The position numbers and the translations under genes are program-made. Positions 41,028 through 61,113 of a DNA stretch of 64,000 bases are shown here, piece after piece. This DNA comes from an uncultured Candidatus Saccharibacteria bacterium. Lineage in GTDB: Bacteria > Patescibacteriota > Minisyncoccia > UBA6257. Under the pieces are notes generated by a model. That model ran no database searches. It worked only from the letters and a program-made list of their open reading frames with translations, and was not told the DNA's origin. Each line of letters begins with the position of its first letter. The stretch's first letter is position 1. The stretch covers positions 254,930 to 318,929 of the forward strand of contig CAZUBI010000001.1 in the NCBI GenBank assembly GCA_964618625.1. The letters are read 5' to 3'.

Positions 41028-41052
41028 AGGGAACCATCTGGGGTTCCCTTTT
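41028..41052 (+). terminator. rho-independent terminator
   Basis: GGGAACC-atctgg-GGTTCCC + TTTT. Confidence 0.65.
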
Positions 41053-41058
41053 AATTTA

Positions 41059-41136
41059 TTTGATTTCTAAAAGCTCAACTTCGAATATAAGAGTTGCATT
41101 TGGAGGAATTGCGCCAGGTTTTCCATTTTCGTTTTT
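41059..41136 (-). pseudogene. 26-codon C-terminal remnant of an FKBP-type peptidyl-prolyl isomerase
   Basis: minus-strand translation KNENGKPGAIPPNATLIFEVELLEIK* matches the FKBP C-terminus (GxIPPNATLVFDVELL); in-frame TAG immediately upstream, no start codon. Confidence 0.6.
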
Positions 41137-41170
41137 CTATTCTATCATAACTTAATCTATTTTTCAAAAT

Positions 41171-41218
41171 AAGAACCTTCGCTTCGCTCAGAATCTTGTT
41201 TCTCGCTTCGCTCGAAAT
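41171..41218. repeat. ~50-bp conserved intergenic element, copy A (tandem ~22-bp half-sites)
   Basis: aagaaccttcgcttcgctcagaatcttgtttctcgcttcgctcgaaat; related copies at 54935..54987 and 60758..60809 (rc). Confidence 0.6.
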
Positions 41219-41219
41219 A

Positions 41220-42197
41220 TTAAGAAGTTTTTTTGTATTTCTGTTTAATTACATCCCGTAATATTTTTTCAACGCGTTTTATGCTTTCATCATCAAGTAT
41301 AGAAATTGAAATTGCTTTCTTACCTATTTTTTTTATATCACTAAGTTTTTTCTTTATCTCGTTTTTATCGAATAAATCGGACTTACTCAAAAAAACATAT
41401 TCAACCTTATCTAAAAGTTTTTTGCTGTAAGCTCCTAATTCATTCCTAATAATTTTGTAATCTTTTATTGGGTCAGGTGATTCTGCGGAAATAAAATGAA
41501 AAAGTGTTTTTGTCCTGTCAATATGGCGTAAAAATTTAATACCAAGACCTTTATTATCAGAAGCCCCTTCAATAAGTCCGGGAACGTCAGCCAATATCAA
41601 TTCATAATAAGCGCCCAAATTTGGATTGAGTGTTGTAAATGGATAATTAGCCACCTTGCTTTTAGCGTTTGTTAACTCATTCAACAAACTGGATTTACCT
41701 ACATTCGGCAAACCAACAAATCCAACATCAGCAATCAGCTTAAGCTCAAGCCTTAATTCATATTCTTCGCCAGGCAAACCTTCTTGAAATTGGGTTGGGC
41801 TTGTATTGGTAGACGATCTAAATTTAAAATTACCCTTGCCACCCCTGCCGCCTTTAGCTATAAGCAGCCGTTGTCCAATAGAAATAATCTCCGAATCTTC
41901 GCCAGCAGATAAATTATGAACTAAAGTGCCAATCGGTACTTTTAAAATAATATCTTTACCGTTTTCCCCATCATGAAGCTGAGGTTTTCCATTTTCACCA
42001 TCTTCTGCTACCAATTCTTTTTTACCGCGAAACTGGGAAAGAGCGCCAATATCAGATACACCCTCCAAATAAACGCTGCCTCCTTTACCGCCATTGCCGC
42101 CAGTCGGTCCAAGACTCATCAACACTTTACTAAATGCCACTGCACCGCGGCCGCCATGACCAGCTTTCACTTTAATTTTTATATCATCAATTAACAT
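41220..42197 (-). CDS. obg: GTPase Obg
   Basis: Obg-fold glycine-rich N-terminus (KAGHGGRGAVAF...GGNGGKGG) plus G-domain GLPNVGKSS. Confidence 0.9.
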   Translation of the reverse strand: MLIDDIKIKVKAGHGGRGAVAFSKVLMSLGPTGGNGGKGGSVYLEGVSDIGALSQFRGKKELVAEDGENGKPQLHDGENGKDIILKVPIGTLVHNLSAGEDSEIISIGQRLLIAKGGRGGKGNFKFRSSTNTSPTQFQEGLPGEEYELRLELKLIADVGFVGLPNVGKSSLLNELTNAKSKVANYPFTTLNPNLGAYYELILADVPGLIEGASDNKGLGIKFLRHIDRTKTLFHFISAESPDPIKDYKIIRNELGAYSKKLLDKVEYVFLSKSDLFDKNEIKKKLSDIKKIGKKAISISILDDESIKRVEKILRDVIKQKYKKTS

Positions 42198-53467: not shown

Positions 53468-54220
53468 CTAAAAATTTAAAATTTTATCTAAATTTCCATC
53501 TAGCACCTCATTAACATTACCTATTTTTTTACCAGTGAGATGATTCTTTACTAATTTATAAGGATGAAGGACATAAGAACGAATCTGATTACCCCATTCA
53601 ATTTTTATTTTTTCGCCCTTTAATTCTTTCAAAGTTTTTACTTTCTGTTTCTCAGCTAATTGATGAAGTTTAGCCCTTAAAACAGTCAAAGCTTTTTCTT
53701 TGTTCTTAAACTGCGATCTTCCTTCCTGGCAACCAACAACTATCCCAGTAGGCTTATGGCGTACCCTTACAGCTGTTTCCACCTTTTGAACATTTTGCCC
53801 GCCTGGACCTGAAGAACGAAAAGTCTCAATTTCTAAATCGCTTTCTTCTAATGGAAGTTCTTTCGCCTCAATAATCGGCAAAACCTCCACTAAAGCAAAA
53901 GAGGTGTGGCGAAGTTTAGCAGAAGAAAAAGGAGAAATTCTTACCAAACGATGTACACCATTCTCATTTTTTAAAATTCTATAAACATCATCTCCGCCTA
54001 TCTCTGCAATAGCGTTTTTAATGCCGCCATATTCATTTTCTCTCTTGTCTAATAATGAAAATCTCCAATTTTTCCTTTCTGAATATTTCTGATACATCTT
54101 TAAAAGCATCAAAGTCCAATCTTCGGCATCTTGACCGCCAGCACCGGCATACACAGAAAGTGTTATATTATTTCCTCTAGGCATCCTGAGAATTTTACCA
54201 AATTTAGGCCTGAAAAACAA
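53468..54220 (-). CDS. prfB: peptide chain release factor 2 homologue lacking N-terminal domain 1
   Basis: SPF tripeptide (RISPFSS), GGQ (SSGPGGQNVQKVETAVR); TTG start; in-frame stop 10 codons upstream; only 24 nt from pcm. Confidence 0.7.
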   Translation of the reverse strand: MFFRPKFGKILRMPRGNNITLSVYAGAGGQDAEDWTLMLLKMYQKYSERKNWRFSLLDKRENEYGGIKNAIAEIGGDDVYRILKNENGVHRLVRISPFSSAKLRHTSFALVEVLPIIEAKELPLEESDLEIETFRSSGPGGQNVQKVETAVRVRHKPTGIVVGCQEGRSQFKNKEKALTVLRAKLHQLAEKQKVKTLKELKGEKIKIEWGNQIRSYVLHPYKLVKNHLTGKKIGNVNEVLDGNLDKILNF

Positions 54221-54882: not shown

Positions 54883-54934
54883 TATTAATAGTTCTAACCA
54901 ATTATATCATAAAAAATTCTTTAAAATCAGAAAT

Positions 54935-54987
54935 AAGAACCTGTTCGCTTTGCTCCAGAACCTTGTTTCCTCACTCCGTTCAGAAAT
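54935..54987. repeat. ~50-bp conserved intergenic element, copy B
   Basis: aagaacctgttcgctttgctccagaaccttgtttcctcactccgttcagaaat; ~50 nt upstream of the pcm start. Confidence 0.6.
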
Positions 54988-55057
54988 AAAAGAAGTCCTT
55001 GTTGTTAAATCAAAAGGGCTTTTCTAAATAATATATTGGTCAAAAGAATAAGGTAAT

Positions 55058-57203: not shown

Positions 57204-57401
57204 CTTTCTCTATTAATTAGGTCTCTATTAATCTGAAGCAATGTTTCCCTGATAAATTTTGTTTTTATATATAGAAAATAAAAATGTATTTTCAAGGTTC
57301 AAGCTAAACTAAGAATACTCTATTTTAGAGTATTCATATTATATAATATCTATATGGAAAAGTCAATGGTTGAGACAAGTCCACTGAAACTTTAGTGAAA
57401 G

Positions 57402-57474
57402 CAGGGGCGGCAGGGCTTGAACCTGCGACCTGCGGTTTTGGAGACCGCCGCTCTCCCAACTGAGCTACGCCCCT
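57402..57474 (-). tRNA. tRNA-Trp (CCA)
   Basis: hand-folded: AGGGGCG acceptor, GCTC/GAGC D-stem, anticodon loop CTCCAAA, T-arm GCAGG-TTCAAGC-CCTGC. Confidence 0.85.
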
Positions 57475-57631
57475 ATTTCTTCATTTCCTTATGACTAGTG
57501 TGTTTTCTGCACCAAGAACAATATTTTTTTAATTCTAATTTACGCTCAACAGTTTTTTTGTTTCTGCGCGTATAATAATTGATATGTTTGCACTCTGTAC
57601 ACTGTAATCTTACTATAAATTCTTTTTTCAT
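57473..57631 (-). CDS. rpmG: 50S ribosomal protein L33 (absent from the ORF track, under 60 aa)
   Basis: translation MKKEFIVRLQCTECKHINYYTRRNKKTVERKLELKKYCSWCRKHTSHKEMKK* verified codon by codon; stop TAG overlaps the tRNA-Trp 5' end by 2 nt. Confidence 0.9.
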   Translation of the reverse strand: MKKEFIVRLQCTECKHINYYTRRNKKTVERKLELKKYCSWCRKHTSHKEMKK

Positions 57632-57683
57632 AGCTAGTATTTATCTGTTGTTAATTGATATTTGTTAGTTGTTAGTTGATCTG

Positions 57684-57755
57684 AGCCGATGGAGGGAATT
57701 GAACCCACGACCCCTTTCTTACCAAGAAAGTGCTCTACCACTGAGCTACATCGGC
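57684..57755 (-). tRNA. tRNA-Thr (GGT)
   Basis: GCCGATG acceptor, anticodon arm CTTTC-TTGGTAA-GAAAG. Confidence 0.8.
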
Positions 57756-57763
57756 TGGACTTG

Positions 57764-57846
57764 TGGGTGCGGTAGGACTCGAACCTACGTAGACCTAAGG
57801 TCGCGAGATTTACAGTCTCGTGCAATTGCCGCTATGCGACGCACCC
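57764..57846 (-). tRNA. tRNA-Tyr (GTA), long variable arm
   Basis: GGGTGCG acceptor, anticodon arm CGAGA-CTGTAAA-TCTCG, variable hairpin GACC-TTA-GGTC. Confidence 0.8.
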
Positions 57847-57910
57847 GTAAATTCTATCTCAGTCATTCATTTTGCCACCTAGGCAAATATTTATCAAGTT
57901 TTCAATACAG

Positions 57911-57983
57911 AGCCACCCATCGGACTCGAACCGACAACCTACGCATTACAAATGCGTTGCTCTACCAATTGAGCTAGAGTGGC
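57911..57983 (-). tRNA. tRNA-Thr (TGT)
   Basis: GCCACTC acceptor, anticodon arm ACGCA-TTTGTAA-TGCGT, T-loop TTCGAGT. Confidence 0.85.
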
Positions 57984-60630: not shown

Positions 60631-60757
60631 CAGTGGGACTTGTCCTCAAATACGAGAACATTTATTATATTATCACATTATATAAACTAAAGTCAACCCT
60701 TCCCCTATATTTTTATTGCTTTTTTAAGCTTTTTTTGCTACAATTTCTTTATTCCTT

Positions 60758-60809
60758 AATTTGAGCGAAGCGAAAATCAAGGTTCTGTGAACAAAGTAAA
60801 CAGGTTCTT
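60758..60809. repeat. ~50-bp conserved intergenic element, copy C (reverse orientation), in the rpmE 5' UTR
   Basis: aatttgagcgaagcgaaaatcaaggttctgtgaacaaagtaaacaggttctt; ends 13 nt before the rpmE ATG. Confidence 0.6.
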
Positions 60810-60822
60810 ATGATACAAACTT

Positions 60823-61113
60823 ATGAAAAAAGACATCCATCCAAAATACAATACTAAAGCAACTGTAAGTTGCGCTTGCGGGGCTAAATTTGATGTTGGC
60901 TCTACTATTGATAAAATGGAAATTGAAATTTGCTCACGCTGCCATCCTTTTTATACCGGGCAAAAAAAATTGATAGATACTGCTGGTCGTGTCCAAAAAT
61001 TTAAAAATCGACTTGAAAAAACAAAGAGTATCAAAAGTAAAAAACCTATCTTGAGTAAAATTGAGAAAAGAAAGAAAAAAAACAAACAAAAAGGCAAAAA
61101 ACTCGCTAAATAG
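60823..61113 (+). CDS. rpmE: 50S ribosomal protein L31 (Cys-containing, with Lys-rich C-terminal tail)
   Basis: MKKDIHPKY...CACGAKF...CSRCHPFYTG. Confidence 0.88.
   Translation: MKKDIHPKYNTKATVSCACGAKFDVGSTIDKMEIEICSRCHPFYTGQKKLIDTAGRVQKFKNRLEKTKSIKSKKPILSKIEKRKKKNKQKGKKLAK

Follow-up and report, generated by a model that had tools for sequence, protein, structure and literature searches.

A roughly 50-bp two-hairpin element beside TAA in a Saccharibacteria genome: very probably a miniature mobile insertion element, with relatives in several classes of Patescibacteria

A sequence of about 50 bp recurs between the genes of the Saccharibacteria window analysed here (the whole stretch of DNA, 64,000 nucleotides in length, with a G+C content of 32.6%), which raises the question of what this sequence is and how it came to lie at these sites. 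The initial annotation, which had noticed three intergenic copies, offered a direct-repeat binding site for a transcription factor, a leader RNA shared by translation-related genes, or a small mobile repeat. The last of these proposals was borne out by clean filled and empty sites, and we consider it very probable that the copies represent a non-autonomous miniature mobile insertion element.

All three copies (A, B and C) were found where they had been described, with a mean column identity of 77% over about 55 nt. Shorter patterns of 23-25 nt, allowing for up to three mismatches, matched at these three sites only (0 expected from 100 shuffles), and neither blastn-short nor an unfiltered full covariance-model scan revealed further copies in the 64 kb. 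A covariance model of the 5' module (R1), built solely from other genomes, recognised the three copies with 49.2-50.4 bits (E about 1e-9). A fourth copy (D), scoring 45 bits against R1, was found on contigs of the same population that run 4 kb beyond the window end, which amounts to four copies of about 47-53 bp each in about 68 kb of the source genome. The gene identities in the neighbourhood agreed with Pfam (obg, PCMT, RF-2-like, L31, RF-1 and S2); the neighbours in the window are obg, a bestrophin-like gene, pcm, an RF-2-like gene, rpsB, rpmE and prfA. The copies comprise the following parts, given in window coordinates together with the adjacent signals:

41170-41172, plus strand: left junction of copy A, TAA, of the same type as in copies B, C and D
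41173-41219, plus strand: body of copy A (GAACC, hairpin 1, AGAATCTTG box, hairpin 2); R1 match 41166-41201, 49.2 bits, E 2.4e-9
41177-41191, plus strand: hairpin 1 region of copy A, degenerate
41190-41198, plus strand: box AGAATCTTG of copy A
41199-41218, plus strand: hairpin 2 of copy A, a TTTC/GAAA stem around TCGCTTCGCTC
41220-41223: 3' junction of copy A, TTAA, whose minus strand includes the stop of the obg ORF (41220-42197, minus strand)
54909-54901, minus strand: predicted extended -10 of the pcm promoter, TGATATAAT
54927-54936, plus strand: left flank of copy B, TCAGAAATAA, which recurs exactly as the 3' end of the element itself (54980-54989)
54937-54989, plus strand: body of copy B, from GAACC to the terminal TAA; R1 match 54930-54968, 49.3 bits
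54941-54958, plus strand: hairpin 1 region of copy B
54957-54965, plus strand: box AGAACCTTG of copy B
54966-54987, plus strand: hairpin 2 of copy B, followed by the terminal TAA
60696-60669, minus strand: rpsB promoter TTGACT-16-GATAAT, with copy C about 60 nt upstream
60716-60721 and 60739-60744: rpmE promoter (TTGCTT, 17 nt, TACAAT), kept in relatives, with copy C downstream
60756-60807, minus strand: body of copy C (GAACC..AGAACCTTG..hairpin 2..TTAA); R1 match 60814-60775, 50.4 bits
60808-60810, minus strand: 5' junction of copy C, TAA, abutting the element's 5' end on this strand
about 64234-64290 (L001 12215-12254), minus strand: copy D, between an HTH gene and recA

Read on the strand that carries ATAAG, a unit has the form TAA^GAACC-HP1-AGAACCTTG(A/T)TT-HP2-(A/T)TAA, in which the caret marks the junction and HP1 and HP2 are the two hairpins. 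The gap between the two AGAACC boxes, which lie about 20-26 bp apart, is a hairpin with a copy-specific stem, the box spacing being 10-16 nt. HP2 starts within the AGAACCTTG(A/T)TT box, right after CTTG, and closes before (A/T)TAA, with a copy-specific stem of up to 11 bp. In the window copies both hairpins contain the core C-TC-GC-TTC-GC-TC-G, and this shared core is what had been taken for tandem half-sites; a repeat tool detected such a repeat in copy A (19 nt, 84%, spacing 24) and in neither B nor C. Likewise, the common 3' end AACAGGTTCTTAT that had been proposed does not extend to copy A, which ends in ..GAAGGTTCTTAT. As for the equal polarity claimed for the copies, A, B and C indeed share one orientation relative to obg, pcm and rpmE (in copy A, the ATAAG-reading strand is antisense to obg), whereas copy D is opposite, as is the family as a whole by 62 to 9. 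The window copies are a weak-stem variant of the family and fold on either strand no better than shuffles (z 0 to 1).

A comparison with relatives showed that copies A-D are lineage-specific insertions. Copy C had no match in 36 related metagenome loci (RpsB 47-91% identical), 27 of which include the spacer upstream of rpsB, and within the rpsB-rpmE spacer the relatives align cleanly around a gap at its site. There, the relatives read ..CTATGATAA^GAAAATTGTAGC.. compared to ..GTATCATAA[GAACC...GCTCAAATTAA]GGAAT.. in the window, the element being enclosed in brackets, and for one of them (L129) the empty form ..GATAA^GAAAATTG stands against the filled form ..CATAA[GAACC...CAAATTAA]GGAAT. The closest relative (L163), with a Pcm protein 98% identical and DNA flanks 97-98% identical, is without copies B, C and D: its alignment ends at 54936, the first junction of B (block 97.4% identical), the BLAST block restarts at 60807, the first base of C, and the empty B site comprises a single TTAGAGATAA. 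Copy B itself matches an element at another locus of L164 with 87.9% identity over 58 nt. For copy D, the empty site GTTATAA^ATAATTTT in L164 compares to the filled site GTTATAA[GAACTT..CGAAATAA]ATAATTTT, the latter also being read as GTTATAA[GAACTT...TTCGAAATAA]ATAATTTT, and in L164 and L166 obg is not followed by copy A.

The spacer between the HTH gene and recA was entered independently, in either orientation, in different lineages. The window species carries copy D in sense orientation, ahead of the recA promoter; in L164 a single antisense copy lies elsewhere in the spacer, inside the recA 5' UTR, and in L166 two antisense copies directly adjoin the recA ATG. The same spacer is empty in L163 and in L167, whose Pcm protein is identical to that of L166.

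Two minor observations concern the site of copy C. The rpmE-rpsB spacer of L127 and L163 (about 4195-4215 in L163) reads CTA TCATAAG TCATAAG GAAATTG at this site, a perfect 7-nt tandem duplication that may have been left by excision or have arisen by simple slippage. Furthermore, three independent assemblies of the same population (L004, L005 and L009) end at one base within copy C, at about 60757 of the window, which suggests a repeat- or polymorphism-induced assembly break.

None of the four copies disrupts a gene or a promoter, which fits the expectation for surviving insertions. Copy A was correctly placed by the initial annotation just past obg, whose stop codon is part of the TTAA junction; on the other side of the copy stands a predicted promoter (TTGAAA-17-TAGAAT with TG). 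Copy B lies between a hairpin 3' of the bestrophin-like gene and the pcm promoter, copy C inside the inferred rpmE 5' UTR, 15 nt ahead of the rpmE ATG at 60823, and copy D upstream of the recA promoter. Most likely, the window copies are neutral passengers in these safe places, i.e. after the obg stop, ahead of the pcm and recA promoters and in the rpmE 5' UTR.

The C-terminal remnant of an FKBP-type isomerase after obg (41033-41100, minus strand, read by eye and ending in ..GKPGAIPPNATLIFEVELLEIK and a stop) had been brought into connection with the element. This connection did not hold, since the element-free relatives L164 and L166 still carry the same remnant after obg in a shorter form; the remnant is thus an old piece of a pseudogene that has nothing to do with the insertion. 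Elsewhere in the window, the RF-2-like ORF (53468-54220, minus strand) has a TTG start and the C-terminal part of the PCRF domain only, which together with a 238-aa call in L001 points to either a short RF-2 or the programmed frameshift usual in this gene. Four tRNA genes (Trp, Thr-GGT, Tyr and Thr-TGT) are clustered at 57401-57983 (minus strand), and in the gene calls of L001 rpmG (L33) adjoins this cluster.

The wider motif search for further copies that the initial annotation had proposed proved productive. With the pattern ATAAGAACY-N10-16-CAGAAYCTTGWTT, derived from the conserved columns and scanned against one genome per GTDB species, at least 115 loci from more than 70 assemblies were found, compared to about four chance matches estimated for a uniform base composition. 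Among the matches listed, nearly all belong to Patescibacteria of several classes, with a few in Clostridia and Desantisbacteria. By record title, these are Saccharibacteria, Paceibacteria/Parcubacteria (Nealson-, Wildermuth-, Portnoy- and Gribaldobacteria, Paceibacterota, Minisyncoccales), Microgenomates (Shapiro-, Levyi-, Curtiss- and Woykebacteria), Desantisbacteria, four Clostridia MAGs and some small-genome MAGs labelled Gammaproteobacteria. Three pattern matches without a hairpin (L029, L092 and L118) are probably due to chance. The listed loci contain 135 plus 23 model matches, and single MAGs hold at least eight exact-pattern copies. Arrays comprise two to four units arranged head to tail, and the flavours of the element are genome-specific, as can be seen for JAPLYW01, a genome in which several loci share identical 5' modules.

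The family is apparently undescribed. No Rfam match on the elements was obtained in the window and 16 further loci at gathering or permissive thresholds (E<=1-5), these scans returning tRNAs, rRNA, introns and T-boxes only, and no published description was found by full-text literature searches, among them searches for the box sequences. A phage origin was rejected, with a single weak match in IMG/VR and the element essentially absent from viral contigs. A likeness of 7-8-mers to the 16S rRNA 3' region and to RNase P CR-V was judged to be chance. TIGR-Tas arrays are long, lie beside a tas gene and have variable non-palindromic spacers between UG/CCA boxes (PMC12045711). TIGR arrays do occur in CPR but differ from the element in architecture and context; an assignment to these or to CRISPR-like guide arrays was rejected, the units being dispersed singly or in groups of 2-4 between housekeeping genes.

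Across the family the boxes are near-invariant, and both hairpin stems vary among the copies yet stay paired. The feet AAC/AAC inside TAAGAACC...AGAACCTTG were present in all 88 aligned cores among the matches listed. The co-variation check that had been suggested gave a positive result: in the 88-sequence alignment, 74 cells of the HP1 stem were changed on both sides compared to 25.5 in shuffles, and 0 of 500 shuffles reached as high a value. The strand opposite ATAAG is the more stable one in 87 of 88 cores (mean -10.8 compared to -6.5 kcal/mol), and this better-folding strand is antisense to most flanking genes. On it, the AAC/AAC loop turns into G.U/U.U/U.G and the TC/CT mismatches into tandem G.A, with a count of 24 A.C against 8 G.U mismatches.

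Between co-directional genes, the ATAAG strand was sense in 62 and antisense in 9 cases among the matches listed (binomial p = 7e-11). In many cases the upstream gene has the TAA of ATAAG as its stop codon, and the next ATG often lies 0-30 nt past HP2, without a Shine-Dalgarno sequence. The flanking genes are diverse housekeeping genes (rpsG-fusA, dnaA-dnaN, dnaK-dnaJ, rplU, aminoacyl-tRNA synthetases and others). The sense bias could originate from a strand preference of insertion, or from selection against a stable hairpin with a U-rich tail in operon mRNAs; since the spacer lengths of sense and antisense copies are alike, they do not discriminate between these two explanations. A promoter subfamily comprises 24 of 129 unique units (about 19%, with 3.9 expected) with an outward sigma-70-type promoter, called where a -10 hexamer matching at 5/6 positions or more stood 16-18 nt after TTG(A/T)TT, and several of these units have an ATG within about 3-11 nt. 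In class-1 units, the type found in the window, no -10 was present at the right distance.

Copies were also observed in less usual surroundings. One locus (L045) contains an in-frame 54-nt copy within a P-type ATPase ORF. In a Saccharibacteria MAG (L106 1-3656) the 23S rRNA gene is interrupted by group I introns with a LAGLIDADG ORF, and an element copy adjoins one of these introns. In two Clostridia MAGs (L112 831-870 and L124 1074-1113) the element separates a T-box leader (Rfam, 128 bits) from the start of the gene that follows it, with the well-folding strand in the mRNA. The genes of two DUF3800 proteins, in a Saccharibacteria MAG (L014 1797-2459) and a Nealsonbacteria MAG (L026 256-909), end exactly in ATAAG; with three DUF3800 genes upstream of elements among the matches listed, this may be a coincidence, or gene and element may travel together.

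The ends of the element were analysed with regard to a possible mode of insertion. TAA is found at both sides of all junctions, which for copies B, C and D represents either a duplication or the target plus the element end, and the left flank upstream of ATAA shows an A-rich preference. Terminal inverted repeats are lacking: GAACC... at one end does not complement ...GAAAT(A/T)A at the other, and inverted-repeat arms were absent from the ends of A and C, with only a weak 75% pair around copy B. A duplication beyond TAA was seen for copy B only, whose flank forms a direct repeat of 10 nt (spacing 53) that includes the junction TAA at 54934-54936; family-wide, a long target duplication is marginal (9-nt flank identity of 3.60 compared to 3.30 +/- 0.15 permuted). 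The CTTG of the box is able to pair with the TAAG of the junction.

Taken as a mobile element, the unit would be moved in trans by an enzyme encoded elsewhere and would insert next to (A)TAA, which would explain why it so often abuts TAA stop codons. Re-insertion at the TAA that ends a resident copy would lead to head-to-tail arrays. Given that terminal inverted repeats are absent, that a hairpin lies near either end, that the target is short and fixed with no long duplication and that CTTG may pair with TAAG, a single-strand movement of the HUH type (IS200/IS605- or RAYT-like) is our preferred guess within the mobile reading, albeit a tentative one. Together with the tandem self-targeting and the strandedness, these features appear closer to IS200/IS605-type miniature elements or REPs than to DDE-type MITEs. 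No transposase or autonomous parent was found within 1.16 Mb of loci (8-20-kb genome pieces). The sole Y1_Tnp gene in these loci (L014 4048-4695, minus strand), found by tblastn with IS608 TnpA and E. coli RAYT query sequences, is flanked by a different repeat, GGGACGTGCAC; as a RAYT or IS200 partner within these loci it was set aside, since it carries its own repeat. A replication-coupled orientation in the strict IS608-like sense found no support in the window: the GC skew is negative throughout the window, yet A and B lie on the plus strand and C and D on the minus strand.

Among known systems, REP, BIME and REPIN sequences (RAYT, Y1 HUH) are likewise short, extragenic, imperfect palindromes with a conserved tag beside the stem, occur in many copies per genome and in clusters, and are non-autonomous, non-coding and tolerated in operon spacers. 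In contrast to these, the element has TAAGAACC and AGAACCTTG as boxes instead of a GTAG or CGTC tag, two different hairpins per unit, head-to-tail arrays in place of inverted doublets, stems that vary within one genome, boxes conserved over classes and not just a genus, and no RAYT associated with it in the 1.16 Mb of loci. With IS200/IS605-derived miniature elements (PATEs) it shares the lack of terminal inverted repeats, a hairpin near each end, a strong strandedness and an insertion site marked by a short fixed sequence, found again at the opposite end, without a long target duplication. The potential pairing of CTTG with the junction TAAG is reminiscent of IS608, in which a guide sequence pairs with the cleavage site. 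It differs from PATEs in its size of only about 50 bp, the lack of a cognate tnpA or tnpB near its copies, its mixed orientation relative to replication in the window and a stabler strand that is antisense to most genes.

The presence/absence polymorphism and the short junction repeat (TAA) also resemble the MITEs of the Correia/NEMIS, RUP and Rickettsia palindromic element type. Rickettsia palindromic elements insert in frame into ORFs, and some Correia members bring promoters, as observed here. Compared to these families, however, the element is much shorter, with an asymmetric two-hairpin layout; of the features of DDE-type MITEs it shows the filled/empty polymorphism and the junction TAA but no terminal inverted repeat. 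IS91/ISCR elements have neither terminal inverted repeats nor duplications and carry GAAC/CAAG-type tetranucleotides at their ends. The element begins with GAAC and its central box contains GAAC-CTTG, a comparison that may serve as a lead; the empty sites, however, contain no GAAC, and therefore GAAC belongs to the element.

The observations can also be read at the level of RNA or of ordinary gene control. As an RNA module that acts in cis within operon mRNAs (for instance in processing or stabilisation, in translational coupling or insulation, or as an antisense terminator), with a conserved CPR protein to recognise it and with insertional spread as a secondary matter, the element would account for the sense bias of 62 to 9, for the spacers between a TAA stop and an ATG that it often fills without a Shine-Dalgarno sequence (e.g. 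dnaK-dnaJ and rpsG-fusA), for covarying hairpins with invariant unpaired boxes and for the conservation across CPR classes. The same spacers, however, are empty in close relatives, a single spacer contains both orientations, copies lie within an ORF and beside an rRNA intron, and Rfam gave no match in the window and 16 loci. Moreover, 87 of 88 cores fold less stably on the mRNA-sense strand, and the window copies fold like shuffles. We therefore consider this explanation unlikely. The earlier proposal of a shared leader RNA for translation genes is not supported, given the diverse flanks, the empty orthologous spacers, the two orientations and the copies in the ORF and at the rRNA intron; a riboswitch, a ribozyme and a ribosomal-protein leader were rejected with regard to unrelated neighbours and empty orthologous sites.

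An operator or UP-like DNA site, at which a transcription factor would bind the two AGAACC direct repeats and co-regulate translation-related genes, would fit the two boxes about 20-26 bp apart and the position of A and B just upstream of predicted promoters (TTGAAA-17-TAGAAT with TG, and TGATATAAT before pcm). The direct-repeat transcription-factor site proposed at the outset did not stand up, given a spacing that varies from 10 to 16 nt, a spacer that is a covarying palindrome, and promoter regions of close relatives that are without the element. In addition, the position relative to promoters is inconsistent, with C in a 5' UTR, D upstream of the -35 and many copies internal to operons; the orthologous promoters of relatives work without it, and the neighbouring genes have no common function. 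This reading is largely refuted, and we give it almost no weight. Ordinary intrinsic terminators with a chance likeness to each other would agree with A and B standing directly after stop codons and before promoters, with a hairpin plus CUUAUUUU when read in the mRNA direction of both obg and the bestrophin-like gene, the minus-strand version being a continuous helix followed by a U-rich stretch. A terminator scan called none of the copies, however, their folding energies equal those of shuffles, copy C and the L164 and L166 copies lie in 5' UTRs, most family members stand in the non-terminator orientation inside operons, and terminators do not keep invariant boxes of 9-12 nt across phyla, all of which makes this explanation highly improbable.

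The mobile insertion element, which we prefer, also has observations against it. The copies within the source genome differ by 20-25%, and their sites are empty in a relative that is 97-98% identical; despite these empty sites the copies are hence not fresh copies of one another. The conservation of the boxes across CPR classes is far deeper than usual for REP or MITE families. The failure to find a transposase or autonomous parent in the 1.16 Mb of loci, the mixed orientations of A-D under a uniform GC skew and a stabler strand that is antisense to most flanking genes likewise speak against it. The 62:9 sense bias and the frequent stop-to-start fit could come from an RNA-level role, although we see little prospect of such an added role for the element.

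It is possible, if rather doubtful in its full extent, that the family is an ancient, CPR-wide miniature transposon without terminal inverted repeats, with TAA as its target, two covarying hairpins and invariant AGAACC boxes, served by a conserved trans-acting enzyme (perhaps a domesticated HUH protein), and with one subfamily delivering promoters for short-leader or leaderless mRNAs. In this case the element would, by its movement, shape the operons of reduced genomes, and it might offer a handle for genetic tools in Patescibacteria. The genomes of Patescibacteria are tiny and streamlined, yet a passenger of roughly 50 bp persists in many classes with its boxes barely changed, which would imply a conserved partner enzyme and a long-lived relationship between element and host; such a depth of conservation is rare among REP or MITE families. 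The mobilising enzyme, once known, could serve as a transposition tool for organisms without genetics. Since the elements lie at stop codons, in spacers and in 5' UTRs and partly carry promoters, they can confound motif-based predictions of regulons and non-coding RNAs, as happened in the initial annotation. They also break metagenome assemblies, and their filled and empty sites are fine-scale strain markers.

Two further repeat arrangements were noticed. The Y1_Tnp protein of L014 comprises 215 aa and is IS200-like/RAYT-like, with the palindromic repeat TAGGGACGTGCAC..GTGCACGTCCCTA on both sides of its gene, and represents a separate REP-RAYT-like system in this Saccharibacteria MAG. In L043, L093, L105 and L028 (Curtissbacteria and others), full elements are flanked by tandem mini-units of 21-22 nt, AATAAGCAAAGCTTTTCTGCG, which resemble units without hairpin 1 (TAAG-loop-CTT plus a mini hairpin 2).
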